Below, piece after piece: positions 1,092-19,700 of a DNA stretch of 64,000 nucleotides. The notes beneath the pieces were generated by a model. The model made no database searches. It worked only from the letters and a program-made list of their open reading frames with translations, and was not told where the DNA came from. The stretch's first letter is position 1; each line of letters starts with the position of its first letter. The translations under genes and the position numbers were made by a program. This stretch comes from Bacilli bacterium (GTDB lineage Bacteria; Bacillota_I; Bacilli_A; RFN20; CAG-826). The stretch lies in contig JAFRPF010000041.1 of assembly GCA_017429285.1 (NCBI GenBank), forward strand, positions 2,753 to 66,752, in the 5' to 3' direction.

Positions 1092-2275
1092 TGAAAAAGA
1101 TTTTATTTGTTAATGGTTCATATAATGAAATACCACTTATTGATGCCGCTCATAAATTAGGAATGTTTGCTATCACATCCGGAAATGATCCTCATGGAGA
1201 CGGGCATCCCTTTGCGGATCAATATATTCCTGGCGATTATTCTAAATGTGACGTTATTTTAAATATTGCTAAAGAGAACAAAGTTAGCTACATATGTTCT
1301 TGTGGTAATGATTTTGGCGCCATTTCTGCATCATACGCCTGCGAAAAACTAAATTTACCAGGCCATGATACTTTTAAAGTGTGCAAATATTTTCATGAAA
1401 AAGATCAATTTAAGAAATTATGTTCTAAACTTAATTTATGCACTCCAAAATCTTATTCATTTAATAGTATAGAAGAGGCTATCAAACATTTAGAAAGTGT
1501 TGAATTCCCACAGATTGTCAAGCCCTCCGATTTAGGTGGTGGAAAAGGAATTCAAGTTGTTAATAGTTATGAAGAAGGCGTTGAAGCGATCAAAATTGCT
1601 TATAAGATGTCTAATATCAAAACTATTTTGATTGAAGATTATATCCTTGGAGAACAACACGGTTACACTTGTTTTATTAAAGATGAGAAAGTTGAATTTG
1701 TTTATTATACAGATGATTTTTCTTATTTGAATCCATATATGGTTTGGGTGGCTATCCCACATGAAAAAGGTAAGGATGAAGCATTAATTAAAAAAATATC
1801 CGCTGATGTGGAACTAATGGCGAAACATCTTCATATGGCGGATGGTTATTTAACTATTCAAATCATTGTTAAAAACGGTGTTCCTTATTATATCGAAACC
1901 ATGAGAAGATGTCTTGGTAATTTACATTATAAATGTATTTCATGGGATTTAGGCATTAATGCTTATGAATTATTTGTCGCTAATGAATGTGGACTAGATT
2001 TAAATAAATATTTAAAGAAAGAATATCCTCTATTTTCCTATAGTGCTTTTATGGGTATTTATGCCGATAAAAACGGTTCTTTCACGGGATATTCAATCGA
2101 TGAAAAATATAAAAAATATGTTAGAAATGAAATGTTAATTGAAAAAGTCGGTTATGAAATAACGGATTATTTAAGACAAAAATTAGGAATGATTTTCTTT
2201 ACTTTTAGTAATGAAAAAGAAAGAAATGAATTTGTAAATAACATGACTAACGTTGTTAAAGTTCATGTAAAGTGA
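1091..2275 (+). CDS. ATP-grasp domain protein (carboxylate ligase, substrate unknown)
   Basis: 394-aa ORF. The segment FPQIVKPSDLGGGKGIQVV and the overall length fit an ATP-grasp fold. Translationally coupled to the upstream gene. Confidence 0.6.
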   Translation: MKKILFVNGSYNEIPLIDAAHKLGMFAITSGNDPHGDGHPFADQYIPGDYSKCDVILNIAKENKVSYICSCGNDFGAISASYACEKLNLPGHDTFKVCKYFHEKDQFKKLCSKLNLCTPKSYSFNSIEEAIKHLESVEFPQIVKPSDLGGGKGIQVVNSYEEGVEAIKIAYKMSNIKTILIEDYILGEQHGYTCFIKDEKVEFVYYTDDFSYLNPYMVWVAIPHEKGKDEALIKKISADVELMAKHLHMADGYLTIQIIVKNGVPYYIETMRRCLGNLHYKCISWDLGINAYELFVANECGLDLNKYLKKEYPLFSYSAFMGIYADKNGSFTGYSIDEKYKKYVRNEMLIEKVGYEITDYLRQKLGMIFFTFSNEKERNEFVNNMTNVVKVHVK

Positions 2276-2284
2276 GGATTTACT

Positions 2285-3883
2285 ATGAGTCAGATTAAAT
2301 TATTAGATTGTACAGTTCGTGATGGTGGCTATCTAAACGACTGGAATTTTGGTAGAAGTGTATTAATTGAAACTGTTCAAAGATTAGCTAATGCTGGTAT
2401 CGATTATATCGAAGTTGGTTTTTTAGATGATCGAAGACAGTTTGATATTAATAGAAGCATCTTTCCAAATACCGAATGTATTAAAACCATTTATTCAAAA
2501 GTGGATAAGAAAAAATCCAAATTGATGGGAATGATCGATTTTGGAACTTGTGATATTTCTAATATCGAACCCAGGGAAACATCTTTTATCGATGGAATTA
2601 GAGTTATTTTTAAAAAAGAGAAAATGGAAAGAGCGATGGCTTTTTGTAAGCAAATCAAAGAGCTTGGATATGAAGTATTTTCACAACTTGTTTCCACAAC
2701 AACATATGAAGAAGAAGATTTTAAAAGAATCATCGCTTTAGCTAATGAAGTTAAACCTGCGGCTCTAAGCATTGTTGATACCTATGGATTAATGGATGAA
2801 GTGGAACTTGGAAGAATCATTGATAGACTCGATAGTGGTCTTGATGAAAAAATCATGCTTGGCTTCCACGCTCATAACAATTTCCAATTAGCTTTTTCTA
2901 ATGCTTCAAGATTTTTAAATAAACATACTAACCGTATCTTTTTAGCGGATGGTACTTTGTATGGTATGGGTAAGGGTGCTGGTAACGCACCTATTGAGTT
3001 ACTAGCTCATTTCGCTAATAAATATTACCAAACATCTTATGGTATCAATCAAATTTTAGAGGCGATTGATTCTAACATTTTAAAATTATTTGGTAAGAAC
3101 AATTGGGGCTATTCTATGAAATTCTATTTAGCAGGCACTAATAGAGTTCACCCTAATTATTTAAGTGATTATATTTCTGCTGGATATCTATCTATATCTG
3201 AAATAAATAATATCTTAAAAGATATTAAAGAAGAACATAAACTCTATTATGATAAAAACGAGAGCAATCGAGTAATCGAAGAGCACGCTAATGAAGTCTC
3301 TAGTTTGTCAAAAGAATCTATTAATAGATTAACTAAAGAATTAAAAGATCAACCGATTTTATTAATCGGGCCTGGTGAAACTTTAGTGGGTGAAAAAAGA
3401 AAGATTAACTCTTTCATAAAGAGCCATAACCCAATTGTTATGTCCGTTAATTTCTTGCCTAGTGGCTATAAGACAAACTACATATTTGTCACTAATTCTA
3501 GAAGATTATGTTCTTTATTAAACTGTGATGTTGATAAAGATAAAAAAGTTATCGCCACATCCAATTTATCAGAAATTACTTTTAAGTTTGATTACCGCAT
3601 CGACAATTTATTCTTGCAAGATAATTCTGCCGCACGTGATAGCGCTATTATTATGGCGTTAAAATTACTAAAAGAATGTTCAGTTCAATCCGTTTATCTA
3701 GCAGGATTTGATGGATATAAATCTTCATTTGAAGAAAACTTTGTTAATATTAGCAATAGTTATGGTTGGAAAGAACCATACCCTGGATTCCTCAATAGTT
3801 ATATTAGAGGTGAGATTAGAAAAATCTCTAAAAAGATGAATATTGAATTTGTGACTACATCAATGTTTGAAAACGAGGATTAA
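2285..3883 (+). CDS. Fusion protein: N-terminal DRE-TIM/HMGL-like aldolase plus C-terminal MptE/DUF115-like (Maf-type) domain
   Basis: 532 aa. The N-terminus has LLDCTVRDGGY and GFHAHNNFQLA, the metal-binding signature of pyruvate aldolase/HMGL-like enzymes. The C-terminus has LLIGPGETL ... VYLAGFDGY, which resembles PF01973 (DUF115/MptE-like). Confidence 0.6.
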   Translation: MSQIKLLDCTVRDGGYLNDWNFGRSVLIETVQRLANAGIDYIEVGFLDDRRQFDINRSIFPNTECIKTIYSKVDKKKSKLMGMIDFGTCDISNIEPRETSFIDGIRVIFKKEKMERAMAFCKQIKELGYEVFSQLVSTTTYEEEDFKRIIALANEVKPAALSIVDTYGLMDEVELGRIIDRLDSGLDEKIMLGFHAHNNFQLAFSNASRFLNKHTNRIFLADGTLYGMGKGAGNAPIELLAHFANKYYQTSYGINQILEAIDSNILKLFGKNNWGYSMKFYLAGTNRVHPNYLSDYISAGYLSISEINNILKDIKEEHKLYYDKNESNRVIEEHANEVSSLSKESINRLTKELKDQPILLIGPGETLVGEKRKINSFIKSHNPIVMSVNFLPSGYKTNYIFVTNSRRLCSLLNCDVDKDKKVIATSNLSEITFKFDYRIDNLFLQDNSAARDSAIIMALKLLKECSVQSVYLAGFDGYKSSFEENFVNISNSYGWKEPYPGFLNSYIRGEIRKISKKMNIEFVTTSMFENED

Positions 3884-3884
3884 T

Positions 3885-4652
3885 ATGAATTTAACCATTA
3901 ATGATTTTGACATTGTTGTCTTTGATTTAGATGGCACTATTTATAATGGCGATACATTAATTACTTCCGCAGATAAAGTGGTGGATTTTTGTCGTCAGAA
4001 TAAAAAGAAAATCATTTTTGGTACTAACAATTCTGGTAAAAATCGCCAGCAAATTGCCGATAAATTAAATAAAATTGGTATTTCTTGCTCACAAGAAGAG
4101 ATAATTACTTCCGCTTTTTTGGCGGGTATTTATCTAAAAGAAAACCACATCAATGACATCTATGTTTTTGGTAGCGATAATTTAAAAAAAGAAGTTATCT
4201 CTAACGGAGTTAATATTACCGATGAAAAAGAAGCAAAAAATCTTCTTGTTGGTTTTAAAAAAGATTATGACTATGAAGATTTATCAAAAGCTTTTAGAGT
4301 GGCGAAAAAAGCTCATCATTTTATTGTTTGTAATAAAGATAGAACCTACCCATCAAATGACGGAACTTTATATCCCGCATTAGGTTATATCACTAGCTCC
4401 ATTGAATGGTGCGCAAATCGTCAAGCTGATGTGATGATCGGCAAACCAGATCCATATATGCTTTCCTATATCGCTAAAAAATATCATGTTAGTAATGATA
4501 GAATACTTTGTGTTGGCGATACATATGAAAGCGATTATTTAACTGCTAAAGCATTTGGAAGCAAATGTGTTTTAATTAGTGATAAAGTATATAAAGAGAA
4601 TAATTTATTCTCTATTAATAAAATAGCGGATTTATTAAATTTATTGAAATGA
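3885..4652 (+). CDS. HAD superfamily subfamily IIA phosphatase (NagD-like)
   Basis: [10 protein letters not shown] (motif I) and [10 protein letters not shown] (motif IV). I chose ATG 3885 because it follows AGGAT. The ORF-track start at 3867 lies inside the upstream gene. Confidence 0.7.
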
Positions 4653-4662
4653 AGGTAATTAT

Positions 4663-6270
4663 ATGAAAGAAATTTTTGATTTTTTGTTAAAGAGAAATAT
4701 AAAACCTCAAGATGTTTTCTATAATCCTAGTTATGAATTTCTCTATCAAGAAGAAAACAATCCTTCTTTAGAAGGATATGAAAAGGGACAAAAAACCGAA
4801 CTTGGTGCTATCAATGTGATGACCGGGGTATATACCGGTCGTTCCCCAAAAGACAAATTCATTATTTATGATGAAACAAGTAAAAATACTGTCTGGTGGA
4901 CATCACCTGAATATCCAAATGATAATCACCCCGCTTCTTTAAAAGCCTGGGAAGAATGTAAAAAGATTGCTACTAAAGAGTTAAACGGAAAAAAATTATA
5001 CGTGGTCGATGCCTTTTCTGGCGCTAATAAAGATACAAGAATGGCAGTTCGCTTTATTATGGAAGTGGCATGGCAAGCCCATTTCGTGACCAATATGTTT
5101 ATTCGACCAAGTAAAGAAGAATTAAAAAACTTTCAACCGGAGTTTACTGTTTATTGTGCTTCTAAAGCTAAAGTTGAAAACTTTAAAGAACTTGGTTTAA
5201 ATAGTGAAACAGCTATTTTGTTCAATTTAACAAGTAAAGAACAAATCATTTTAAATACTTGGTATGGTGGGGAAATGAAAAAAGGCATTTTCTCCATGAT
5301 GAACTATTTCTTACCACTCAAAGGTATTGCGAGTATGCATTGTTCCGCTAATACTGATATGAACGGAGAACACACAGCGGTGTTTTTCGGCCTATCAGGA
5401 ACTGGAAAAACCACTTTATCCGCTGATCCAAAAAGATTACTCATCGGTGATGATGAACATGGATGGGACGATAATGGCGTTTTTAACCTCGAGGGCGGCT
5501 GTTATGCAAAAGTTATAGATTTAGATAAGGAAAGCGAACCAGACATCTATAAAGCGATAAAAAAGGACGCTTTACTCGAGAATGTGACGGTTAATGAAAA
5601 TGGCAAAATTGATTTTCACGATAAATCCGTTACTGAGAACACAAGAGTTAGTTACCCTATTTACCATATCAATAATATTGTTAAGCCAATCAGTCACGGT
5701 CCTCATGCCGAAAATGTTATTTTCTTAAGTTGTGATGCTTTTGGAGTTCTTCCACCAATCAGCGTCTTAACTCCTGAACAAACGATGTATTATTTCTTAA
5801 GCGGCTATACTTCTAAAGTGGCAGGTACAGAAAGAGGTATCACTGAACCGACACCAACCTTCTCAGCTTGTTTTGGACAACCATTTTTAGAACTCCATCC
5901 TAAAAAATACGCTGAGGAATTAGTAAGACACATGAAAATTACTGGCGCTAAAGCTTATTTGGTTAATACTGGTTGGAATGGTAGTGGAAAACGTATTTCC
6001 ATTAAAGACACTAGAGGAATTATTGACGCAATATTAAATGGAGATGTCACTAAAGCAGCCAAAAAGAAACTACCTATTTTTGATTTTGAAATTCCTACTT
6101 CATTACCAGGAGTGAACAGTCAAATATTAGATCCGAGAGATACTTATGAAGATATAACCATTTGGGATAACAAAGCCAAGTCTTTAGCGGAAAGATTTAA
6201 CAAAAACTTTGCTAAATATGAATATGATGAATTTGGCAAAGAACTTAAGAAACATGGACCCTCATTGTGA
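4663..6270 (+). CDS. pckA: Phosphoenolpyruvate carboxykinase (ATP)
   Basis: 535 aa. Kinase-1a motif [19 protein letters not shown] and NTGWNG, with full-length collinearity to ATP-dependent PckA. Ends at TGA. Confidence 0.95.
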
Positions 6271-6360: not shown

Positions 6361-7632
6361 ATGTTAAATATGGATGTAAAAGCTGTCTTTAACGCAACAG
6401 TATGTTTGTTAGGAGTGTTGATCCTTTCTATTCATATTGTGAATATTATTTTAAAAAAAGATCGTAGAAAGGATGAAAATGCCTTACTTCGTTTCTTTAT
6501 TTTTACAGTCATTCACTTAATTACCTATGTGACATTTACGTTTATAAAAGAAGTGTATACAAGTGATGTCTTTATCATGACTTTTTACACTGTATTCTAT
6601 ATTTTTAATAATATAGAAGTTATTCTATTTTACATATATCTATCTAGATACATTAATTCCTCTAACAAGAATATGAAAATCATTGATATTGTTAGTTATT
6701 CCTTATTCGGATTATTCGTTATTTCCGATATTATAAATATCTTTACTCATATGTATTTCTCTTCCGTTAATGGAATATATACCAGAAGCAAATTCATGAT
6801 CATTTCTCAAGGCTATCAATTCATTATTTTAGCGACCGCTTTTGTTTTAGCGGTATTTAACAAAAACCTGAATTTAAGAGAAAAGATTGCCTTTGCTTTA
6901 TATTGTGTTTTACCCGCTATATCAATTATCTTACAAAATATCTTTGCCGGATATGCGATTGCTTATGCGACACTTATCGTGTCTGTGGAAATATTGTTCC
7001 TATTCTTAAATGTTGAGAAAAATATCAAATTAAGAGAGGATGAAAAACAGTTAAAAGAAGCCAATATGAAAATCATGGTGAGTCAGATTCAACCTCACTT
7101 TGTTTATAACACCCTTTCTTCTATCTCCACACTTATTACTATTGATCCTAATAAAGCTCAAAAAGCACTTGATGATTTCTCTGATTATTTAAGGATGAAT
7201 TTCTCCACTTTAACAGAAACTAAATTAGTATCTTTCGAAGATGAATTAAGACACATTCAAACTTATGTTAATTTAGAAAAAATGAGATTTAATGATCGAC
7301 TTAATGTCATTTATGACATAAAAGTATCTAATTTCTCCCTTCCTCCTCTTAGTGTTCAACCTTTAGTGGAAAATGCGATTAAACACGGCATTTTAAAGAA
7401 AGAAGAAGGTGGAACAGTGATCTTAAAAACATATGAAACTGATAAAGCTTTTATCGTAGAAATTATCGATGATGGTGTGGGATTTAATATCGATGAAATC
7501 GATTTTAAAAACAACAAACATATCGGTTTAAATAATGTTAAACATCGTATTACCACTATGTGTAAAGGGGATATTACATTTGAAAGTGAAATCAATAAAG
7601 GCACAAAAGTGACCGTTTCATTTTTAAAGTAG
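6361..7632 (+). CDS. Sensor histidine kinase, LytS/YehU type (multi-TM sensor + His_kinase + HATPase_c)
   Basis: About 6 N-terminal hydrophobic helices. QIQPHFVYNTL is the H-box of the PF06580 family; LVENAIKHG is the N-box; DDGVGF is the G1 box. Confidence 0.85.
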   Translation: MLNMDVKAVFNATVCLLGVLILSIHIVNIILKKDRRKDENALLRFFIFTVIHLITYVTFTFIKEVYTSDVFIMTFYTVFYIFNNIEVILFYIYLSRYINSSNKNMKIIDIVSYSLFGLFVISDIINIFTHMYFSSVNGIYTRSKFMIISQGYQFIILATAFVLAVFNKNLNLREKIAFALYCVLPAISIILQNIFAGYAIAYATLIVSVEILFLFLNVEKNIKLREDEKQLKEANMKIMVSQIQPHFVYNTLSSISTLITIDPNKAQKALDDFSDYLRMNFSTLTETKLVSFEDELRHIQTYVNLEKMRFNDRLNVIYDIKVSNFSLPPLSVQPLVENAIKHGILKKEEGGTVILKTYETDKAFIVEIIDDGVGFNIDEIDFKNNKHIGLNNVKHRITTMCKGDITFESEINKGTKVTVSFLK

Positions 7633-7644
7633 TAATATATAGTT

Positions 7645-8403
7645 ATGACAATCCTATTAGTAGATGATGAAGAATTACAGTTATTAAGACTGGAGAATGA
7701 AGTTAAAAAAGTTGTTCCAAGTGACGCAACCATTCTTTCATTTTCTAATTCCTCAAAGTTTTTAAAAGATCATAAAGAAGATAAAATCGATATCGCCTTT
7801 TTAGATATTGAAATGCCAGGGATGAACGGTATTTCATTAGCCAAAGAATTAAAGAAAATCAATCCTTTAGTGAATATCATTTTCGTAACTGCCTATAACG
7901 ATTATGCTTTAGAAGCATATAAGATTCACGCTTCTGGTTATTTATCTAAACCTGTCAGTGCGGAAAAGATTAAAAAAGAATTAGAAGCTTTAAGATATCC
8001 AGTGGAGCTTAAAGGAGAAAAGAAATTACAAATTAAATGTTTTGGTAATTTTGAAATATTTCGTAATGGCGAACCAGTGAGATTCTCCTATCAAAAATCA
8101 AAAGAAGTTTTTGCCTATTTAGTGGATAGAGAAGGCTCAGTTATTAATGTTAATGAATTAAATGCGGTTTTATGGGAGGAAGATCATAAATCATATTTAA
8201 GAAATTTAATTGCCGATATCGTAACTACCTTAAAAAATATCGATTGCAGCGATGTTTTCTTAAAAAAACACAATGGTTGTTGCATCGATGTTAATAAAGT
8301 TGATTGTGACGCCTATGAATATAAAAAAGGCAACCCCAATGCGATAAGAATGTATCGCGGTGAATATATGGCCCAATATCCTTGGCCAATCTTTAAAGAC
8401 TAA
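7645..8403 (+). CDS. Response regulator: receiver domain plus SARP/OmpR-like winged-helix DNA-binding domain
   Basis: LLVDDE ... FLDIEMPGMNG marks the receiver with its phospho-Asp. The C-terminus IKCFGNFEIFRNGEPV...KEVFAYLV...LWEED follows the wHTH (Trans_reg_C/BTAD-type) pattern. Confidence 0.85.
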   Translation: MTILLVDDEELQLLRLENEVKKVVPSDATILSFSNSSKFLKDHKEDKIDIAFLDIEMPGMNGISLAKELKKINPLVNIIFVTAYNDYALEAYKIHASGYLSKPVSAEKIKKELEALRYPVELKGEKKLQIKCFGNFEIFRNGEPVRFSYQKSKEVFAYLVDREGSVINVNELNAVLWEEDHKSYLRNLIADIVTTLKNIDCSDVFLKKHNGCCIDVNKVDCDAYEYKKGNPNAIRMYRGEYMAQYPWPIFKD

Positions 8404-8411
8404 TATTTTTT

Positions 8412-8429
8412 AGTGGCACTTTTGTGACA
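8412..8429 (+). promoter_or_regulatory. Direct-repeat candidate operator AGTGGCA-N4-TGTGACA (11-bp register)
   Basis: Half-sites at 8412-8418 and 8423-8429, just after the response regulator stop and 160 bp upstream of the STAS operon. A near-identical element lies at 11901-11918. Confidence 0.3.
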
Positions 8430-8590: not shown

Positions 8591-8890
8591 ATGAAATACG
8601 AGATAAAAGAACAACAACTAATTATTTATTTACAAGGTGAAATTAATTCTTCCACGGCGGATAGCGTTGAAAGAGATATTGACTTACATTTACAAGGTCA
8701 AGAAATTAAATCAGTCGTTTTAGATATGACTGAGTTAGTTTATATGTCATCCGCGGGTATTAGAATCGTCATGAAACTAAAACAAAGATATGATGATTTA
8801 ACGCTTAATAATGTTCCAAATGGAGTTTATGAAGTGTTACATATGGTGGGAATTACTAATTTTATTAAAACTAATAAATTAGAAAAATAA
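8591..8890 (+). CDS. STAS-domain anti-sigma-factor-antagonist-like protein (SpoIIAA/RsbV type)
   Basis: 99 aa. The conserved phospho-serine context is present: VLDMTELVYMSSAGIRIV. Confidence 0.85.
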   Translation: MKYEIKEQQLIIYLQGEINSSTADSVERDIDLHLQGQEIKSVVLDMTELVYMSSAGIRIVMKLKQRYDDLTLNNVPNGVYEVLHMVGITNFIKTNKLEK

Positions 8891-8891
8891 G

Positions 8892-10730
8892 ATGAGAAAA
8901 AAACAAGTTATACCAGATATATATTTAAAGGCTTATATCGATAACGAAGCTGACGCGAACAAAAAAATGATTATCGTTAACGCGATCGGTGGAGGCGTTG
9001 CCACGATATTAGCGATTTGTTATGCGGTGCATTTTTTCACTATTCCTTCGATTATGTATCCGGTGGTTTTAGTTTTATTCCCGGTTAGTGCTTTATTATT
9101 ATTTTCTCCATTATTATTTATAAAAAGTGATCGCTTAAGATTACCAAGATTTAAAAACTTCTTATTATTCTCTTTAATGACTGTTGTCGCGGCGATTAAT
9201 ATCTTCTTACCAAAACACGGTCTATTAGCCTGGACTTTACCAATCGTGATGGCGAGCCATTATTATAACCCTCGCTTTGCGAGAGTTATCTTCTTTTCGA
9301 CAATAACTTTGATGTTAATTTGTATGTATACAGGAATGTTTCTCGGCGAATATGATCCTTTATTACTTAGCTCAGGTGTTGAAAAAGAAGCTGTTAACAC
9401 ACCAGAAGGGCGTCTTGAATTATTAAAAGATTTAATGGCGCAAGGTAATAATAGATACTTAAAAGTATTTACTTTATATTACATCCCTCGTGTTGCGGCG
9501 ATTTCTTTAGTATTCATCATCCTAGATTCTTTAAATAGAAGAACTAATAGATTACTAAGAGAAGAAATTCTCGCTAACGGCGAACACGAAAAATCTAGAA
9601 CCGAATTAAACATCGCGAAAGAAATTCAAATTAATACATTACCAAGTTCTGAAATTGATGATGGTGAAGTTCATATTGTGGGTGAACTAGACGCAGCGAA
9701 AGAAGTGGGCGGCGATTTATATGATTATCTATATATCGATGAAAATCATATCGCCATCCTAGTGGGTGATGTCTCTGGTAAAGGTGTTCCAGCGGCGATG
9801 TTTATGATGAAAGTTATCACTTCCTTTAGAGACTTTACTGTGAAAAATAAATTACCGTCAGAAATATTAAAAGATATTAATACCTCTATTATTAGAGGTA
9901 ATAAAGCCGGAATGTTTGTCACTTGCTTCTTAGCGATTTTCGATAAGAGAAACGGTAAGATTATCTATTCTAATGCTGGACATAATCCTCCACTTATTGG
10001 TAATAGCTTTAACTTTCGATATTTAAAACCAAAACAAGGCTTTTTATTAGGCATGTTTGATGATCCTCCACTCGTGGATGAAGAAATCGTTTTGAAAAAA
10101 GGTGAAAGTATCACTTTATATACGGATGGCATTACTGAAGCTAGAAATAGTAATGGCGAATTCTATGGAGAAGAGAGATTATTAGAAACTTTTAATAAAA
10201 AAGAACAATTCTCCATCGATGAATTACATGAAGATTTAAAAGAAGATATCGCTAACTTTGTGAAAGATGCACCACAAAGTGATGATATCACTTTCGTGAC
10301 ATTAAAATATCATGATGCTTCAGTTAGAACAAATCATAAACGCTTTGATGGAACCTTAGAAGATATTAAAAATATGCTTTCTTTTATCGGTGATTTCGCT
10401 ATTGAGAATGAATTTAGTGAAGAAAATAAAAATAAATTATTAATAGTGAGCGATGAAATATTATCTAATGTGGTCAAATATGGTTATCAAAATGAGGGTG
10501 GACCAATCATGATTAGGTTGTCATTTAATAAATCAATTAGTGAATTTACGATCACCGTGATCGATAAAGCTCCAGAATTTAATCAATTAGAAGTCAAAAC
10601 TGATAACAATAATGAAGAATTACATATCGGTGGATATGGTCTTTCCATTGTAAAAAATATTATGGATGAATATTCATATAATTATGCGGACGAGAAAAAC
10701 ATTTTAACTTTAAAAAAGATCATTAAGTGA
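8892..10730 (+). CDS. Membrane-bound PP2C (SpoIIE/RsbU-type) phosphatase fused to an RsbW/SpoIIAB-like HATPase_c kinase domain
   Basis: Multi-TM N-terminus. PP2C motifs: GGDLYDY, VGDVSGKGVPAAMFM, NAGHNPP, LYTDGITEA, DDITFV. The C-terminus has EILSNVVKYGY and GGYGLSIVKNIMDE (N and G boxes). Confidence 0.8.
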   Translation: MRKKQVIPDIYLKAYIDNEADANKKMIIVNAIGGGVATILAICYAVHFFTIPSIMYPVVLVLFPVSALLLFSPLLFIKSDRLRLPRFKNFLLFSLMTVVAAINIFLPKHGLLAWTLPIVMASHYYNPRFARVIFFSTITLMLICMYTGMFLGEYDPLLLSSGVEKEAVNTPEGRLELLKDLMAQGNNRYLKVFTLYYIPRVAAISLVFIILDSLNRRTNRLLREEILANGEHEKSRTELNIAKEIQINTLPSSEIDDGEVHIVGELDAAKEVGGDLYDYLYIDENHIAILVGDVSGKGVPAAMFMMKVITSFRDFTVKNKLPSEILKDINTSIIRGNKAGMFVTCFLAIFDKRNGKIIYSNAGHNPPLIGNSFNFRYLKPKQGFLLGMFDDPPLVDEEIVLKKGESITLYTDGITEARNSNGEFYGEERLLETFNKKEQFSIDELHEDLKEDIANFVKDAPQSDDITFVTLKYHDASVRTNHKRFDGTLEDIKNMLSFIGDFAIENEFSEENKNKLLIVSDEILSNVVKYGYQNEGGPIMIRLSFNKSISEFTITVIDKAPEFNQLEVKTDNNNEELHIGGYGLSIVKNIMDEYSYNYADEKNILTLKKIIK

Positions 10731-10741
10731 TGGAGGGAATT

Positions 10742-11896
10742 ATGAAGTTTGAATTAAATAAAGATGTGTTAACCATCTACTTAGAGGGGGAATTTAATTC
10801 TTCTAATGCGGAACAAATCGGTCAAGAAATTGACAAGATTGTTAATAAAGAAAAATTTAATAAATTAGTAATGGATCTAGCTAAGGTTAGCTATATTTCA
10901 AGTGCGGGTTTAAGAGTGTTTTTAAAACTTAAACAACGTTATGATAATTACTCCATTATTAACGCTAGTTTAGAAGTTTATGATGTCTTCCAAATGACCG
11001 GCTTCACTAACATGATGGATATTAAAAAAGCTTTAAGAAAAGTGGATGTATCTCACGCTGAAGTAATTGGAGAAGGCTTTTTCTCCACAGTCTATCGTTT
11101 GGATAAAGATACCATTGTGAAAGTTTTTAACCGCACAAGTGATGCTGATCAAATTCAAAGAGAATTACGCCTTGCTAAAGAAGCATTTGTTTTAGGTGTT
11201 CCTACGGCGATATCTTTTGATATCGTTCAAGCGGGAGATAAACTCGGCGTGATGTTTGAAATGCTCGATTGCGCTTCTTTAAAAAATGTCTTATTAGAAG
11301 ATAAAAAACATTACCAAGAAAATTTAAAGAAATATGCGATGTTATTAAAGAAAATTAACACCACAGAATGTTTAAATCCGGAAATCCCTGATATTAAAAA
11401 ACTTTACTTTAAGAAATTAGAAGAGATTAAGAAACATCTAGAAGATAAATATTATCAAAAAGCCAAGAAATTATTAGAATCTATCCCTGATCGAAAAACA
11501 TTCGTGCATGGTGATTGTCACTTTAAAAACATCATGGTCCAAAATGGCGAATTCTTATTAATTGATATGGATACCTTATCCGTTGGTCATCCCATATTTG
11601 AATTAGCGGCGATTTACGCCCCTTATTGCGCCTTTAACGAAGATGAACCCGGTAATAGTGTGAAATTCTTCGGCATCAAAGATGAAGATGCTAAAAATCT
11701 CTATAATACCGTTCTCGATTTATATTTCGGTAAAGATATTAAAGAAGGCAAAGATAAGATTAGATTATTAAGCTACATCCATATGGTGTGGTGGAATAGA
11801 GTTAACGAACCGAATAATAATGTGAGATTAGAAGGTTGCCGTTCTCGTTTATACGAATTATTAGATAAATATAACGATTTAGATATTGGCATATAA
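10742..11896 (+). CDS. STAS domain fused to an APH/choline-kinase-fold kinase domain
   Basis: The N-terminal STAS carries LVMDLAKVSYISSAGLRVF. The C-terminal kinase fold has IVKVF (Lys), HGDCHFKNIMV (catalytic loop) and LIDMD (metal-binding Asp). I chose ATG 10742 because it follows GGAGGG. Confidence 0.75.
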   Translation: MKFELNKDVLTIYLEGEFNSSNAEQIGQEIDKIVNKEKFNKLVMDLAKVSYISSAGLRVFLKLKQRYDNYSIINASLEVYDVFQMTGFTNMMDIKKALRKVDVSHAEVIGEGFFSTVYRLDKDTIVKVFNRTSDADQIQRELRLAKEAFVLGVPTAISFDIVQAGDKLGVMFEMLDCASLKNVLLEDKKHYQENLKKYAMLLKKINTTECLNPEIPDIKKLYFKKLEEIKKHLEDKYYQKAKKLLESIPDRKTFVHGDCHFKNIMVQNGEFLLIDMDTLSVGHPIFELAAIYAPYCAFNEDEPGNSVKFFGIKDEDAKNLYNTVLDLYFGKDIKEGKDKIRLLSYIHMVWWNRVNEPNNNVRLEGCRSRLYELLDKYNDLDIGI

Positions 11897-11900
11897 TGGC

Positions 11901-11918
11901 TGTGACACTTATGTGACA
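11901..11918 (+). promoter_or_regulatory. Direct-repeat candidate operator TGTGACA-N4-TGTGACA (11-bp register)
   Basis: Perfect 7-mer repeated at 11901-11907 and 11912-11918, between the STAS-kinase stop (11896) and the GT2 start. Confidence 0.3.
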
Positions 11919-11943
11919 AGCTTTGTTATATCATTTTTTTGTT

Positions 11944-13254
11944 ATGAATTACGTCACGATTATTAACATTATTTTTGCTATCATTTCCGCTCTACTAGGC
12001 ATCTATCTTTTTCATTTTATTTTCTTTGCGATAAGTGCTACATTTCATCATCGTAAGTATCCAACTAGTGATGAGAAATGTCGATATGGAATTATCGTTA
12101 GCGCCAAAGATGAAGAGAAAGTTATCGGTCGACTTATTAATAGCATCAAGGAAACTAATTATCCTATGGATAAATTAGAGATCTTTGTGATCGCTCATAA
12201 CTGCAAAGATCTAACCGCGGAAATCGCTAGATCTTTAGGTGCCAAGGTTATTATAGATAATAACGAAAATGAAAAGACTCTGGGTCTAGCTTATAAATAT
12301 GCCTTTGAGCGTATAGAAAATATATCTTCCTATGATGGTTTTATCTTCTTTAACGCTGATAATGTTGTACCTAAAGATTATTTTGATAAATTAAACGATG
12401 CTTTTATCTATTATCATAAAAAAGATGTCGTCTCCTCATTACGCCATTCTTTAAATGTGGAAGATGGTTTAATACCATCTTTATATAATTATTATTTTTC
12501 AACATCATGTTTATTAGCCTTTTCGGGAAGAAATAATTTTAATGTTTCCGGTCGTATTACTGGTTGTGGATTTGTCCTTCCTTCCTCTTATTTAGTCGAT
12601 GGTTGGAATTATTTAAGCATCACGGAAGATATTGAATTTAGTGCCGCAAATGTTTGTAAAGGAAGGACGATCCGTTTTTGCTATGACGCTGTCTTTTATG
12701 ATGAACAACCCACTGATTTAAAAACGGTGTGGAATCAACGTATCCGTTGGGCTAAAGGACAACAGATAATTTCTAAAAAATATTTTCCGATTGTGCTTAA
12801 ATCCTTATTTTCTAAAGAACATAAAAATAAAGTGTCTTTATTTGTTTCATTAACTTTTCACTCGTTTATTGTTCTAACGGTGTTCGTTTTATTTTTAGCG
12901 CAAATAATATTGCTTTTACTTTCACCGATATTTAATGTCTCTATTTATGATGCGTTTTTATATTGGGATCATTCCGCTTCTTTCTTTACCAATATGTTTT
13001 TATCTTTTAATACTGGTTATTTATTTACATTTTTTAAATCAATTGCGTTTTTCTTCCTTAATTCCTATCTAACCGCAGCTATGGTATTAATATCAGGAAG
13101 AAGTAAGAATAAAGATTTTAATAAAGGAAAAATGTTTATCTCATTTTTTATCTATCCTTTGTTTTTAGCGTTACAATTTCCGATGGAAATCATCGCTCTA
13201 TTTAAAAAAGAAATTAAATGGAAAAAGATTGATCACGGTAAAAGTGTTGATTAG
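11944..13254 (+). CDS. Processive family-2 glycosyltransferase (membrane-embedded beta-glycan synthase type)
   Basis: Motifs FFNADN (DxD), ITEDIEF (TED) and QRIRWAKGQ (QxxRW), with TM helices at both ends. The start is uncertain: ATG 11944 or TTG 11923, and neither has a clear SD. Confidence 0.8.
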   Translation: MNYVTIINIIFAIISALLGIYLFHFIFFAISATFHHRKYPTSDEKCRYGIIVSAKDEEKVIGRLINSIKETNYPMDKLEIFVIAHNCKDLTAEIARSLGAKVIIDNNENEKTLGLAYKYAFERIENISSYDGFIFFNADNVVPKDYFDKLNDAFIYYHKKDVVSSLRHSLNVEDGLIPSLYNYYFSTSCLLAFSGRNNFNVSGRITGCGFVLPSSYLVDGWNYLSITEDIEFSAANVCKGRTIRFCYDAVFYDEQPTDLKTVWNQRIRWAKGQQIISKKYFPIVLKSLFSKEHKNKVSLFVSLTFHSFIVLTVFVLFLAQIILLLLSPIFNVSIYDAFLYWDHSASFFTNMFLSFNTGYLFTFFKSIAFFFLNSYLTAAMVLISGRSKNKDFNKGKMFISFFIYPLFLALQFPMEIIALFKKEIKWKKIDHGKSVD

Positions 13255-13510: not shown

Positions 13511-13580
13511 AAAAGAAAATAGGGAAAAAACTGTAAAAGAAAGTAGGGGAAAATCTTTAAAAGAAAATAGGGAAAAAACT
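13511..13580 (+). repeat. Three tandem 24-bp A-rich repeats (AAAAGAAAATAGGGAAAAAACT core)
   Basis: Copies at 13511-13532 and 13559-13580 are identical. The middle copy at 13535-13556 is AAAAGAAAGTAGGGGAAAATCT. They lie in the 530-bp gap upstream of the giant gene. Confidence 0.85.
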
Positions 13581-13786
13581 TGATATTTTAGTAAATGTAA
13601 ACCAAAAACTTTACTTTAGGTATTAAAAAGTATAGTTTTGTATTGTTTTATATTGCGTGGTCAGCTTTTATATTTTAATATATAAAAAACAACTACATTG
13701 TCCATTGTTTAATTTAGATTAAAAGCTATGGTCATTGTAAATCATTAAGTATCTTGTAATTAGTGATTATTTATAGGTATTGGTGT

Positions 13787-16700
13787 ATGAAGAAATCTAT
13801 TGTTAAAAGTATCGCGCTAGGAATTGGTGGATTATTAAGTCTATCCTTTTTGTTTGGCGTAGGTTCAAATAACCAATCTATCAATAAAGAAGATAGTGAC
13901 ACTGCTTTATTAGCAACTAGCGTAAAAAAACAACAACTCATTAATAGAGATGGCGTTAACACAGAAGGAACACCTTTACCTACTAGTGGCACGTTATCAG
14001 CAGGAACATATTATCTAGATTCTGACTCAACTATTACTTCGATATTAAATATTACTTCTGGTGACGTTATTGTAAATCTTAACGGACACACCTTAAATGG
14101 TGGTGGCCGAGATAAAGGTACTTTTTACGTAACAGGCGGAACATTAACGGTTAATGGTAAGGATGAGACAACCGGTCAGCGTGGCCTAATAAATAATGCC
14201 GGAGGCTATTATCCAGGTAGTGGTTATAGTTATGGCGGTGCGCTTTATATTACTAAAGGTGAAGCAACATTTAACGACCTTGACATTACAAATTGTCAAG
14301 CTAACTGGGGCGGTGCCATATATATGAGTAATAGCGCCGTTACTCTTAATAATTGTAATTTGTCTGGCAATAAAGCCACTAACGGCTATGGGTATCCTTG
14401 CGCCATTGATGTTGGGGATTCTTCTACCGCCGGGACAGGACTAACCGTAAATGGTGGTGAGATGTTTTCTAATGATGCCGGTATATCTTTAGGTAATAAA
14501 GCAAAGGCCACAATAAATGGAGCTTATATTCACGACAACGAGCGTTTTGGTGTCCGTGTTGAAGATAGTGGTGCAACTTTAAATATATCTGGTGATACTA
14601 TCATAAAAAACAATTCTACATCAACAACTTCGGGTGCACGTGCTAATTTACGTATAAATGGTACTAATCAAGCTAAAATTGCCATCACATCTGCTCTAGG
14701 TGATAATGCATCGATTGGTATTACCATGACCGGGACTCAAGGTATTTTTACCGCTAGTGCGGATACATCACTGAATGATTTCAGCAAATTCTTTAGTGAT
14801 GATGCTAATTATGCTGTTGCTAAAAACAGTGATGGTCAACTATATCTAACAGAAGCTGTTGCCACTGTCACGAGTGGTGCAACAGTTACGGAATATGCAA
14901 CTTTTAGTGATGCTGTTAGTGCATGGGGATCTGCTAGTAATGGCGCAAACTTGACATTACTAAAAGATTCGACTACTGAAAGCACAATCTCTGTTAGCGA
15001 TACTAAGACATTTGATTTAAATGGATGTGGCATTAACGCTAACGGAAGTAGCATTCCGATATTCACCGTTAATGCTGGTGGTGATTTTACTCTTAACGAT
15101 AGTGGTTCAACCACTCATTACTATACATTAGCTAATGTTGAATCTAATGGAGCGGCTTTTGCCACAATTTGTGATGAAGAAACTTATGAAGCTGCTGCAG
15201 CTGACGCTAGAGGAACTTTTACTGGTGGATATTTAACTGGGGCCAATCCTAGTGCACAAACTGGTATTTATCCAGGTGGTGGTATCTATATTTTAGCTAA
15301 TGGTGTGGCCACAATGAATGGTGGCACTATCATTGGTAATATTGCCTCTAACTGTGCTGGTGGAGTTGGAAGTTATGGCACATTCATTATGAACGATGGG
15401 AATATTATCTATAATCGTGCAAGAAGAGGAGCCGTTCTTGCTTCTGCAGGGGAAATGACAATTAATGGTGGTCATATCTCTTATAACACTGGTAGAGGCA
15501 CTCAAGATTGCGGTACCTCTGGCGCTGTAATGATTTATGGTAATTGCACCAGTTTCATTATTACTGGTGGTTATTTTACTAATAACTTTGCAAAATATGC
15601 CGGATTTGCTAGCAATATAGAAACTATCTCAATATCTGGTAATCCAGTATTTAAAGATAATATTGGTTGTGGCGCTAGTGGCACTGATACTACAGAAATT
15701 AATGCCTGGTTATGTAGAAGAAGTAATCTCAATGTCTATTTTGATATTGTTGGTGAATTAACTGAAGGTGCAGAAATAGGTGTCACTATAGAAAATACAT
15801 CTACAGGTGTTATCACTAACTCAAGTGATATTTCATATAATGACGAAAGTAAATTCTTTAGTGATGCTAGTTATGCCGTTGCGAAAAACAGTGATGGTCA
15901 ACTATATCTAACAAATGCTGTTGCCACTGTCACAAGTGGTGAAACGGTTACAGAATATAATAACTTTGATGACGCTCTTGCTGCATGGACTGATGAAACT
16001 ACTCTTAAATTATTAAAAGATGTCACTATGAGCGATACTATTAATGTGAATAATAATGCCACTCTTGACCTCAATGGTCATGGAATTAAAGCAACCGGCA
16101 CTGACTATAGTGTTCTTACTATTAATAATGGAGGAAAACTTATCATCATTGATAGTGGTGATACGACACAATATTTCACAATAACTGACCGTTATGATGG
16201 TAATGGGGCGGGATTTGCTACTGTTTGTGATAAAGCCACATATGATGCGGCTAGTGAAAACCTTAGAGGCACATTCCAAGGTGGCTATATTACTGGTGGG
16301 AATATCATAAACACCGGGTTTTATCAATCTAAAGCCGGAGCTATCACTGTTATGGAAGGTGGAGAACTTGATTTTAAAGCCGGTACTATTATTGGTAATA
16401 GCGGTGGCAGCGAATCTCCTGGTGGTGTTAGTTCATTTGGTACATTTACACTTAATGGTGGAAACATCATCTATAATCGAGGTAGAAGAGGCTCTGGAGT
16501 ATTTCTTGATAAAGGCACTTTCGTAATGAATAGTGGCTCTATTGAATATAACACTGGTGTAGGTGCAACTGAATATGGTACTTCTGCCTTACACTCATAT
16601 GGAAACACCAAGTCTATTTCCTTAAAAGGAGGAAGCATTTCTCATAACTATGCTAAGTATGGAGGAATTCTCACACCAATTAATATCTTTTTATCCGGAG

Positions 16701-19700
16701 ATTTCGTTGCCGCTAATAACATTGCTTGTGGATCTTCTGGAACCGACGCAGCAAATAGAAACATCATATTATCAGAGGGCGCACTTATAAGCGGATGTAT
16801 TACTGGAAATACACCTATAGGTATTAGTTTTCTTGGCTCTGATACTGGTGTATTTACTAATAATACCGATACATCTTTAAATGATCCTAGTAAGTTTGTA
16901 AGTGATAACACTAACTATGCTATTGGAGTTTATCCAGCTGATAGTACCAAAGCTGGACAATTATTCATTGGTAATAAGGTTACTGTTACTTATACTACTG
17001 AATACGGAACTGCGCCTGCTTCTGATGTAGTGGCAGACGGTTCTATTATTTATAATGAACCAACATCTCCAAGCCAGGAAGGTTATGTATTTATAGGTTG
17101 GTATAAGGATGAAGAATTTGAAAACGCCTGGGATTTTGCTACTGACACTGTCACTTCAAATACAACCTTATATGCTAAATGGTACGATGAAGCTACAGCC
17201 AATGTTATTAAACTAATCAATGATATTGGCGATCTTACATATGCAGGTGGTGTTAACGATTCATTAGATGACATTATCACTGCAAAAGCTGCATATGATG
17301 CATTAACTCCAAGCCAACAAGCAATTGTTAATAAAGAAAATAAAGATGTTTTGGATCACGACATCTTAACATATAGACATGTTGATAATGTTGCAGATTT
17401 AATTAAAGAAATTCCTGCAGCAAGTGATTCTCAAGAATATTACGGTGCAGTTGAAGCTGCTTTAGCAGCGTATAAAGCTTTAACCGATGAAGAAAAAAAC
17501 ATTTTAAATGCTAGTCTTGATTTCCAATACAAAAAGACACTTGATGATAATATCGCCGCTAAAGAAGTTATTGAACTTATCCAAGATATTGGAGAAGTAA
17601 CTTATAACGGTGGTCAAGATGACTCTAAAGACGATATCAATGCCGCCTTAGATGCGTATAACAATTTAACTGACGATCAAAAGGCAAGCGTTAATAACGC
17701 TAATAAAGATGCTTTAGATGAGGCAAAAGAAACATATGATAATGTCGATGAAGCCGTTAATCTAATTAATTCTATCGGTGATATTAATCACGGAGGAGAA
17801 AGCGATTCAAAAGAAGCAATCGATGCTGCTAAAGACGCTTATGAGTCTTTGACACCGGAAGAAAAAGCTCTTGTCGCTTCATATAATAACTCTGAAAAAA
17901 CATTAGAAGACGCTGAAGAAGTATATGATGTTTTAGTTAAAATCGATGACATCGGTGAAGGCGATGATGATGAGAAAATTAAAGAGGCTAGAGATGCTTA
18001 TGACGCCTTAACTCCAGAACAAAAAGATAAAGTGAACGATGAATCTTTCCAAAAATTAATTGCTGCTGAAAATCGTTCTAGTGACGCGAAAAAGCAAGCA
18101 AATATCTTATTTATCGTTTTCTTAATTCTTTCCATTCTCTTAATTGTTAGCGGATTAATCGTTCTCTTTGTTCTTCTTAAAAGAAGAAAAGATGAAAATA
18201 ATAGCAATAATAAGCAAGTAAAAGTAGCATCTATTTCTGGATTATTACCATTATTAATTTTAGTTTCATATTTTAGATCAACTAAATTTATCATCCTTTA
18301 TATTTTAATAGCTGTCGGAATTCTCATTTGGTTAGCTAACCTGATTCTCTTTGTTTCTAAAAAGAGACAAAAAGAAGTGAAAGTCGAAGCTAAACCTGAA
18401 ACAGTTATTTCCGCTGTATCTCAAGATAAACAAACTGAAATAATTAACGAAGATGAAGAAGAAGTGGAAACTATCACTGATGAAAAAGGCAATGTCTTCC
18501 AAATCAGGTTTATCAAATCTTTCACCGCTAAACTTATTCAATCTCCAGATGAAACTAAAAAATATTATGAAGAGCTTAAAAACGAAGTCCTTTCATATAA
18601 GAAAACAAATTCCAGAATCTCTTGGCATTATGATGCGGTTAATTCCGGAAGAAACTATGTTTTAAAATTTGTAATTAGAGGAAAAACACTTTGTGTTTAT
18701 CTTCCTTTAAACGCTGATGATTATGCTAATTCAAAATACAAAGTAGAGAAAGCTGAATCTAAACGTTATGAAGATGTACCATGTCTCTATCGTATTAAAA
18801 ATGATAGAAGATTAGGTTACGCGAAAGAACTTATCGAAGTGGTTGCTAATAACCTCGGTTTAGAAAAAGAGGAAGAACAACATGAAGTCTACTCTAATCT
18901 CCCATATGAACCTAATAAACCACTTGTTGCTAGAGGTTTAATTAAAGAACAAAAAATACAAGTTAATAAGCCCGCTAGTGAACCCGCTATATTAGAAACT
19001 AAAACTAATTCAGATGGAGATGAAGTGGTGGTCAGTAAAGACGCAAGTGGCAACATCTTTGAAATTAGATATATTAAGTCATTTACCGCTAAACTTATTC
19101 AGTCTCCAGATGAAACAAAGAAATATTATGAAGAGCTTAAAAATGAGGTTCTCTCTTATAAAAAGACTAACTCTAGAGTGAGTTGGCATTATGATGCGAT
19201 TAACTCTGGTAGAGAATATGTCTTAAAGTTCGCTATTAGAGGAAAAACACTTTGTGTCTATCTCCCACTTGATAGTGAGAATTTGGAAGATAAGTATAAA
19301 GTTGAAAAAGCGGAAAGTAAACGCTACGAAGATGTACCTTGCTTATATCGAATCAAGAATGATAGAAGACTAGGCTATGCAAAAGAACTTATCGCGATGG
19401 TGGTCTCTAACCTCGGCTTAGAAAAAGATGAAGAGCAACATGAAGTCTATTCAAATCTTCCATATGAAGAGAATAAACCGCTTATCGCTAGAGGTTTAAT
19501 CAAAGAACTTAAAGTTAAAGTAAATAAACCTGATTATGGTCCTGTTGTCTTAGAAAGCAAAGTCAACTCTGAAGGTGATGAAGTAGTATTAACTAAAGAT
19601 AGCAGTGGTAACTTATTTGAAATTAGATATATCAAATCATTTACTGCAAAACTCTCTCAAAGTGAGGCCGAAGTTAAAGATTATTACACAATTTTAAAGA

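Follow-up and report, generated by a model that had tools for sequence, protein, structure and literature searches.

A 64,000-nucleotide stretch of DNA from an uncultured rumen Bacilli bacterium (contig JAFRPF010000041.1, assembly GCA_017429285.1), hereafter the window, codes at positions 8591-11896 a three-gene module composed of a stand-alone STAS protein (gene i), a membrane protein with a PP2C phosphatase domain and an RsbW-type kinase domain (gene ii), and a second STAS domain fused to an APH-fold kinase (gene iii, STAS-APH). Sequence motifs, structure models and analogy with characterised systems suggest that the module probably operates as a partner-switching-type serine phospho-switch that has the APH-like kinase, and not a sigma factor, as its client and output. 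The original prediction had proposed a partner-switching-type module with opposing PP2C and RsbW-type domains in one protein, two STAS domains and a fused enzymatic domain; all of these domains and their motifs are intact.

The three co-directional open reading frames (ORFs) are found on the forward strand at 8591-8890, 8892-10730 and 10727-11896, nearly abutting, which agrees with their earlier description as tightly packed. One nucleotide separates the stop codon of gene i from the start of gene ii, and 11 nucleotides lie between gene ii and the ATG of gene iii at position 10742. Gene iii most likely starts at this ATG (10742-11896, 384 amino acids) rather than at GTG 10727, where its ORF opens, because a ribosome-binding site GGAGGG at 10732-10737, within the 3' end of gene ii, is placed for the ATG and because 384 residues is the length of nearly all homologs. 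Searches with domain hidden Markov models (HMMs) gave matches to PF01740, PF07228, PF13581 and PF01636, each in the gene where it was expected.

Gene ii (8892-10730, + strand) codes a 612-residue protein whose amino-terminal sensor-like domain (residues 1-215; 8892-9536) has no Pfam match. Hydropathy indicates approximately six transmembrane (TM) helices in this region, and the AlphaFold2 (AF2) model has helices at residues 9-45, 56-76, 87-105, 107-124, 127-151 and 188-249, the last of which is a long helix leading into the PP2C domain. The PP2C domain (residues 284-473; 9741-10310) belongs to the SpoIIE family (PF07228, 2.2e-50) and is followed by an RsbW/SpoIIAB-type HATPase_c_2 domain (residues 488-609; 10353-10718; PF13581, 4.1e-18) covering model positions 4-127 of 127. 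The PP2C motifs GGD (273-275), GDVSGKG (292-298), YTDGITEA (410-417) and SDD (463-465) are invariant in 41 aligned sequences, as are the metal ligands D275, D293, D412, D464 and D465, so that the complete phosphatase core in a polytopic membrane protein, as initially described, is upheld. The same alignment shows no variation at D521, E522 and N526 of the N box (DEILSNVVKYG, residues 521-531), at D558, or at G580, G581 and G583 of the G box (GGYGLSIV, residues 580-587). 'SpoIIE family protein phosphatase [Bacilli bacterium]' is the NCBI name of a protein that is 100% identical to gene ii and comes from a metagenome-assembled genome (MAG).

The AF2 model of gene ii (mean predicted local distance difference test score, pLDDT, of 79.7) has its top PDB match in 3ke6, the structure of the RsbU and RsbW domains of Mycobacterium tuberculosis Rv1364c (E 3e-17, 376 aligned columns). 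Its carboxyl-terminal domain matches SpoIIAB (1l0o) with a template-modelling score of 0.77, while the PP2C domain has the fold of the PP2C domains of RssB, SiaA and SpoIIE. A PDB search with the sequence alone also retrieves 3ke6, which spans the PP2C/HATPase junction (query 261-535) and is the best match to both domains among solved structures. The fold matches to 3ke6 and 1l0o confirm the HATPase assignment of the carboxyl terminus. A single membrane protein is predicted to carry intact and opposing activities, a PP2C phosphatase and an RsbW/SpoIIAB-type serine kinase.

Gene i (8591-8890, + strand) codes a 99-residue STAS protein (PF01740, 4.6e-15; TIGR00377, 58.2 bits for a cut-off of 53.45). 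Its predicted phospho-acceptor is Ser54 in the motif YMSSAGIR (residues 51-58; nucleotides 8741-8764), which is the phosphorylatable serine context first noticed in the sequence. In gene iii the STAS domain (PF01740, 7.1e-15, residues 9-103) features the motif YISSAGLR (residues 56-63; nucleotides 10892-10915), whose predicted phospho-acceptor is Ser59 when numbered from the GTG, as done here, or Ser54 from the ATG. Both STAS domains exceed the cut-off of TIGR00377, the 'anti-sigma factor antagonist' family, and their sequence matches in the PDB include 1th8, 1auz and 4hyl. We take the phospho-acceptor to align with Ser58 of SpoIIAA. In 198 aligned STAS-APH sequences, comprising the rumen orthologs and about 135 distant cluster representatives, Ser59 is found in 197 and Gly61 in all 198, and Y-I-S-S-A-G-L-R is near-invariant. 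Stand-alone STAS neighbours keep Y-x-S-S-A-G-L-R, with both serines, the glycine and the arginine, in 37/37 cases. Orthologs of both types therefore retain the serines on which the original prediction leaned.

The second half of gene iii is the APH-fold domain (11042-11893, + strand), recognized by PF01636 (3.1e-14, residues 112-301; 53.7 bits for a gathering cut-off of 23.2), and the protein is indeed a STAS domain fused to an APH-fold kinase. This domain features a G-loop IGEGFFSTVY, the beta3 Lys132, a Brenner motif HGDCHFKN and a metal site LIDMD; K132, E146, H261, D263, N268 and D280 are invariant in two alignments reaching 33-43% identity. The AF2 model (mean pLDDT 91.1, predicted template-modelling score 0.79) shows a SpoIIAA-like STAS domain (residues 7-101), a confidently modelled linker of at most approximately 10 residues and a bilobal APH-fold kinase. 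Its nearest PDB folds are APH(3')-Ia, APH(2''), 5-methylthioribose kinase, a choline/ethanolamine-kinase family protein and a capreomycin phosphotransferase, at 12-20% identity. These models point to a place among small-molecule hydroxyl kinases rather than Hanks-type protein kinases. The fold matches, generic APH, methylthioribose-kinase and choline-kinase ones at this identity, single out no substrate. The best NCBIfam match of gene iii is TIGR02172 (4.7e-32), at 111.6 bits below its cut-off of 228.2, and by sequence STAS-APH is a clade related to that family but distinct from it. STAS-APH is 74-80% identical between the window and its close matches, which include proteins from the same contigs as the partner PP2C-kinase, for which identity is 54-63%.

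In the proposed mechanism the six-TM domain of gene ii would sense a membrane or extracellular cue, and the long helix of residues 188-249 would relay it to the balance between phosphatase and kinase. The HATPase domain would bind the unphosphorylated STAS domain of STAS-APH and phosphorylate Ser59, a reaction reversed by the PP2C domain; Ser54 of gene i would be treated likewise by the two domains. The phospho-state of the STAS domain, which is attached rigidly to the APH domain, could gate the APH-like kinase either in cis, through altered packing of the STAS and APH domains, or through tethering to and release from the membrane-bound HATPase. The stand-alone STAS protein would compete with STAS-APH for both of these domains and serve as a buffer, a decoy or a second output. 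The substrate of the APH domain, judged from its fold and motifs, would be a hydroxyl-bearing small molecule.

The association between these genes extends far beyond the window. A scan taking one genome per species yielded 63 loci, all from uncultured rumen or gut Bacilli whose labels include Erysipelotrichaceae, Acholeplasmatales, Bacillales and Ca. Enteromonas. The unit that recurs in synteny is STAS-APH directly followed by the PP2C-kinase, while the order STAS1 (the stand-alone STAS) / PP2C-kinase / STAS-APH is found exclusively in the window species and in locus L001, from its nearest relative; the arrangement in the window is, on comparison of these sequences, a local rearrangement. A stand-alone STAS gene stands beside the core in 20/63 loci, all in the clade nearest to the window. 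Counts were made with domain HMMs on all six-frame ORFs, since antisense ORFs in contigs of higher GC content distorted the ORF clusters C3, C6 and C9, and were limited to loci flanked by 3 kb or more on each side. A fused PP2C-HATPase lies within 5 kb of STAS-APH in 34/40 of these well-flanked loci and an extra STAS in 15/40. The phyletic survey replaces the three-gene cassette originally proposed by a two-gene core, STAS-APH plus PP2C-HATPase, with the stand-alone STAS as an optional member. The pairing is kept in more than 100 independent loci, far beyond chance.

Some rumen loci feature duplicated elements. L014 and L039 have a second STAS and PP2C-kinase pair beside the module, and a second STAS-APH paralog (approximately 39% identity) is found 3-4 kb upstream in L027, L028 and L034. 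In L004, whose STAS-APH is 77% identical and has no adjoining PP2C-kinase, the next gene (11407-13167) codes a 586-residue membrane protein with an EAL (cyclic di-GMP phosphodiesterase) domain. The clade with STAS1 (L003, L005, L010, L012-L016, L023 and L050) has a conserved block preceding the module, composed of a radical-SAM/SPASM maturase-like protein (approximately 464 residues), a 130-residue protein without Pfam match and a heterodimeric ABC exporter pair. This block looks like a cassette for peptide maturation and export. ABC exporter pairs are found near the module in 30/63 loci, in varying arrangements.

The wider family is large. Searched exhaustively, a set of 1.84 billion cluster representatives gives 595 matches (representatives of 50%-identity clusters) at E <=1e-30, nearly all of 380-400 residues and aligned from residue 6-17 onward, hence covering both domains. 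A profile search finds more than 7,600 clusters (90% identity) at E <=1e-20, many of them from Clostridia MAGs. The family is concentrated in rumen and gut Firmicutes and is named 'anti-sigma factor antagonist' at NCBI; it is widespread and mis-annotated and appears to be uncharacterised. A sensor-SpoIIE-HATPase_c_2 protein is coded in 4/4 annotated Clostridia contexts (38-42% identity), with 5TM-5TMR_LYT, Cache_3-Cache_2 or another TM domain as sensor. A stand-alone STAS protein (98-99 residues), a small HD_4 protein and an SDF transporter are each present in 3/4 of these contexts, and a sigma factor in 0/4.

A distant set of 63 loci, at 36-46% identity, was subjected to a Pfam census of the two ORFs on each side of STAS-APH. 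Among the 188 ORFs, HATPase_c_2 is found in 19, SpoIIE in 17, STAS in 14, HD_4 in 10, SDF in 6 and PHP in 3. Parts of a partner switch stand beside STAS-APH in 16/24 distant loci with full flanks, and in 8/63 distant loci the HATPase domain is coded in the same ORF, as in the natural fusions STAS-APH-HATPase_c_2 (P0276) and HATPase_c_2-STAS-APH (P0334). The six-TM domain of the window type is present in all rumen Bacilli orthologs of gene ii, yet in only four distant loci; other lineages carry Cache, 5TMR_LYT or two-TM sensors on the same PP2C-kinase core. Because the six-TM domain is nearly confined to the rumen Bacilli partners, the sensor is taken to be swapped on a constant PP2C-kinase / STAS-APH core. 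Neighbours that recur outside the window are stand-alone STAS proteins, RelA/SpoT-type HD_4 and PHP phosphohydrolases, SDF transporters and ABC exporters.

Longer architectures are also observed in the family: HD-CE-STAS-APH, STAS-APH-PolyA_pol with a nucleotidyltransferase head, and Na+/H+ exchanger-STAS-APH (P0257, P0343 and P0378), the last recalling SulP-STAS transporters, as well as a PHP protein fused to STAS-APH (P0362). An HD_4 protein of approximately 190 residues, of the hydrolase-only RelA/SpoT type, is coded directly upstream of STAS-APH in 16/63 distant loci, for example in L068 (5424-6011), L070 (5424-6011) and L067 (3878-4447); its stop codon overlaps the STAS-APH start in L068 and L070.

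Several points weigh against an APH-like kinase under partner-switch control. About 15% of the well-flanked rumen Bacilli loci and one third of the well-flanked distant loci have no PP2C or HATPase adjoining STAS-APH; in such loci STAS-APH may have a partner coded at another site or may work by itself. Literature searches found no biochemical description of a family member. A target sigma factor encoded elsewhere in the genome has a low probability, and HsbR offers a precedent for it (PMC6482189).

Under this last possibility the module would be a canonical anti-sigma circuit with a distal target, in which the HATPase domain of gene ii sequesters an alternative sigma factor, the two STAS proteins serve as ordinary anti-anti-sigma factors and the APH domain plays an accessory part. 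That both STAS domains pass the TIGR00377 cut-off, and that NCBI gives the STAS-APH family the same name, fits such a circuit, and Rv1364c is part of the mycobacterial SigF circuitry. Two REC-PP2C-kinase fusions, HsbR and CrsR, bind RpoS, and before this was shown HsbR had no known direct sigma target (PMC6482189). However, neither in the window nor in 147 related loci does a sigma gene lie within approximately 5 kb of the module. A jackhmmer search with a sigma-70 region-2 seed across the window and these loci found only two sigma genes, 5 and 6.6 kb away in unrelated loci; sigma factors of the extracytoplasmic function type may escape this seed. The two true matches validate the seed. Pfam finds no sigma domain in 20 small and medium window ORFs, the window ORFs above 300 residues having been scanned in part, and Sigma70 is not a recurrent family among the 188 flanking ORFs of the census. 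The statement in the original prediction that no sigma factor is encoded at the locus consequently holds for the window as for the 147 loci, where orthologous cassettes have no sigma gene beside them. The near-invariant catalytic set of the APH domain, together with a conservation above that of the kinase-phosphatase, argues for APH as the functional payload, and the natural STAS-APH-HATPase fusions require no third partner. A distal sigma factor is considered unlikely because linkage is missing and the APH catalytic site is strongly conserved.

A further possibility concerns the nature of the output. STAS-APH could be a nucleotide (or RNA 3'-end) kinase gated by the partner switch and making a phosphorylated signalling nucleotide, with HD_4 and PHP proteins as its erasers and the sensor-PP2C-HATPase protein setting the timing. 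This rather doubtful idea stems from the HD_4 and PHP neighbours, the HD-CE, PHP and PolyA_pol fusions and the EAL neighbour in L004. The HD_4 neighbour corresponds solely to the RelA/SpoT amino-terminal hydrolase domain (TIGR00691 positions 1-122, 4.3e-27), and the PHP neighbour is nearest to 3',5'-nucleoside-bisphosphate phosphatase (3.8e-37, below cut-off). Speculatively, the idea applies at the level of the family, the window lineage having no adjoining HD_4 gene. If true, it would imply an unrecognised second-messenger-like pathway widespread in gut and rumen Firmicutes.

The original prediction saw in the module a switch for envelope or biofilm functions. The genes for a glycan synthase and a giant surface protein were said to come straight after the module, which is correct in the window, where a membrane glycosyltransferase of family 2 (GT2; 11923-13254, + strand; PF13641, PF13632, PF00535) begins 26 nucleotides past gene iii with no terminator between them and may be co-transcribed with the module. 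This adjacency is not a conserved property: within the rumen Bacilli set of 63 loci, the two genes come directly after the module solely in the window species and L001. A conserved link to these genes was rejected on that ground, and the envelope/biofilm role, which leaned on this adjacency, loses its footing. A switch dedicated to exopolysaccharide or envelope production, acting on or with GT2 and the giant protein on the model of SypE/SypA or HenR/All4160, is an improbable primary role for the module. GT2 genes do lie several kb downstream of the module in L003, L010 and L015, a heptamer repeat that stands upstream of the operon as well as of GT2 is seen again before the GT2 genes of L001, L010 and L015, and partner switches controlling polysaccharides are documented (PMC10120452; bioRxiv 10.64898/2026.04.08.717354). 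Yet neither GT2 nor the giant protein is coded near the module in most loci of the rumen Bacilli set (63) and of the distant set, the genes that recur near it across the family code for HD_4 or PHP phosphohydrolases, SDF transporters and ABC exporters, and the enzyme fused to STAS is a kinase, not a glycosyltransferase. The GT2 protein scores far below the cut-offs of the EpsU and PgaC models.

STAS-APH might also be self-contained, its APH domain being a protein kinase for its own or the stand-alone STAS serine, or its STAS domain a ligand sensor, with PP2C-HATPase as a mere eraser or scaffold. The APH domain does match weakly the protein-kinase-type families Bud32, SrkA/PRK11768, CotS, RIO1 and Pkinase, and a minority of loci have STAS-APH without an adjoining HATPase. 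This arrangement is quite improbable: an intact RsbW-type kinase with invariant N and G boxes is the commonest neighbour of STAS-APH and is sometimes fused to it, and the best structural matches of the APH domain are small-molecule kinases. The PF01636 match and the top folds APH(3'), APH(2'') and capreomycin phosphotransferase could point to a kinase that gives resistance to an antibiotic (aminoglycoside, macrolide or peptide) and is turned on through a sensor of envelope stress. Such a role is highly improbable for a gene that behaves as a conserved chromosomal one, kept at 55-80% identity across many species, with nucleotide-type phosphohydrolases among its neighbours, only 12-20% identity to resistance enzymes, and NCBIfam scores of 15.4 and 16.2 bits for the APH(3') and APH(6) resistance equivalogs, whose cut-offs are 205 and 325.

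The heptamer repeat lies outside the core module and is a candidate cis-regulatory element. The copy before GT2 (11901-11918, + strand) has the sequence TGTGACA-N4-TGTGACA, and a second copy, AGTGGCACTTTTGTGACA, with two mismatches, is found upstream of the operon (8412-8429, + strand), where it overlaps a -35-like hexamer. The consensus TGTG(A/G)CA-N4-TGTG(A/G)CA, with an 11-bp periodicity, is present in the window and in L001-L016, L023 and L050. Always on the sense strand and in short gaps between genes, variants with two mismatches or fewer are seen again in the same clade, placed before STAS1, just after the PP2C-kinase, before GT2 and before the radical-SAM/ABC genes. The number of copies within the window is not above chance at up to three mismatches; it is the cross-locus comparison, and this alone, that shows recurrence and supports the repeat as real. 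The repeat may be a site for the adjacent REC and OmpR-like response regulator (7645-8403), a promoter or an RNA element. Some variants resemble a sigma-54 -24/-12 element, the window copy lacking the GG/GC.

That response regulator and a polytopic histidine kinase of LytS/His_kinase type (6361-7632) are coded directly upstream of the module. The carboxyl-terminal half of the regulator has no Pfam match, and its NCBIfam alignments to PhoB, CreB and RppA reach approximately residue 200. In L003, L010-L013 and L015, an ortholog of the regulator is coded approximately 8 kb upstream of the module. On the other side, the giant protein (13763-20431, 2222 residues) has an amino-terminal beta-helix / Listeria-Bacteroides-repeat region and central TM segments, followed by a tail predicted to be cytoplasmic with three repeats of approximately 185 residues (IR(F/Y)IKSFTAKL...) and a terminal Ribosomal_L27A (uL15)-like segment found in precomputed Pfam annotation. 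This architecture is odd for a surface protein. The 509-nucleotide intergenic region preceding its gene contains repeated AAAATAGGGAAAAAAC-like motifs at 13517-13580 (two close copies and a degenerate third).

Further upstream in the window, genes for Ldh_2, ATP-grasp, HMGL-like and HAD hydrolase proteins (24-4652) precede the phosphoenolpyruvate carboxykinase gene (4663-6270). In the related contigs L064 and L065 a DegT/DnrJ/EryC1 aminotransferase gene precedes the same run; these genes may form a cluster for the modification of a sugar or acid. Elsewhere in the window are four tRNA genes. None of the accessory genes sought there (HD_4, SDF, the ABC pair, radical-SAM and a stand-alone RsbW) is present, and PADLOC defence-system models give no match to the three module proteins or to the HD_4 partner.

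Partner switching is usually taught as sigma-factor control, and the few sigma-less cases have an unknown or idiosyncratic output. SypE/SypA, HsbA-HsbD and SiaABCD are such sigma-less switches. The Bacillus RsbU/RsbV/RsbW and SpoIIE/SpoIIAA/SpoIIAB modules are built from the three domain families seen in the window module and have their phospho-acceptor at the position used there, but their output is sequestration of a sigma factor by a free kinase, whereas here the kinase is fused to the phosphatase and anchored in the membrane. Rv1364c resembles gene ii in having PP2C and then an RsbW-type kinase in one chain. It is a cytoplasmic protein of the SigF circuit with a PAS sensor and a STAS domain in the same chain, while gene ii has a six-TM sensor and the STAS domains of the window are on separate proteins, one of them fused to APH.

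The combination of domains had been thought to look different from known systems, a view that does not stand as it was put: fused PP2C-kinases, sigma-less switches and a STAS-enzyme fusion under PP2C/RsbW-type control are already documented. HsbR and CrsR each combine a sensor, a PP2C domain and a kinase/anti-sigma domain in a single protein, which determines whether a STAS protein is phosphorylated, and phosphorylated HsbA engages an enzyme, the diguanylate cyclase HsbD (PMC6482189, PMC5085249). HsbR was thought to have no sigma target until control of RpoS was shown (PMC6482189). Pseudomonas HsbR/HsbA(/HsbD) and Shewanella CrsR/CrsA are thus alike the window module in that a fused PP2C-kinase controls a STAS protein. 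Gene ii shares the PP2C-HATPase_c_2 order of the Rv1364c/HsbR/CrsR class but has no REC or PAS input domain, whereas the input of HsbR and CrsR is a phosphorelay-fed REC domain, RpoS is sequestered, and there is no APH-fold protein. The Hsb and Crs STAS proteins are stand-alone and bind their enzyme non-covalently, unlike the covalent STAS-APH.

Vibrio fischeri SypE is a dual serine kinase/phosphatase acting on SypA (phospho-Ser56), in a polysaccharide locus and with no known sigma target (PMC10120452, PMC8256260). It differs from gene ii in its kinase-REC-PP2C order and cytoplasmic location, SypA is a single-domain STAS protein, and the link to polysaccharide is conserved for SypE/SypA but not for the window module. 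On the side of the enzyme, APH/choline-kinase-fold small-molecule kinases and TIGR02172, a Fibrobacter paralogous family, share with STAS-APH the fold, the beta3 Lys, the Brenner HxDxxxxN motif and the metal Asp. Literature searches (TIGR02172, STAS with aminoglycoside phosphotransferase, fused architectures) gave no description of an APH-fold kinase as the STAS-fused client of a partner switch, and in a phosphoproteome paper on C. difficile only RsbV and SpoIIAA are mentioned.

The label 'anti-sigma factor antagonist' would mislead regulon predictions, and identifying the substrate of the APH domain would give a function to thousands of genes and might reveal a regulated metabolite or signal that is new. 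As the proposed output and the switch domain form one protein, the effect of the STAS phospho-state on a defined enzyme is directly testable with two or three purified proteins. The closest characterised precedent of the STAS-APH switch is Anabaena All4160, a STAS-glycosyltransferase that RsbW-type kinases regulate negatively by phosphorylating it and that becomes active by way of HenR, a SpoIIE-type phosphatase (bioRxiv 10.64898/2026.04.08.717354). HenR/Alr3423/All4160 has been proposed as partner switching that directly regulates an enzyme (bioRxiv 10.64898/2026.04.08.717354). Both All4160 and STAS-APH have an amino-terminal STAS domain with a phospho-acceptor serine, fused to an enzyme and linked to a PP2C phosphatase and an RsbW-type kinase. 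They differ in that the cyanobacterial system uses a fused glycosyltransferase and has kinase and phosphatase as separate proteins. Every single domain of the window module is already known; what appears new, as far as the literature searches tell, is an APH-fold kinase as the STAS-fused client.

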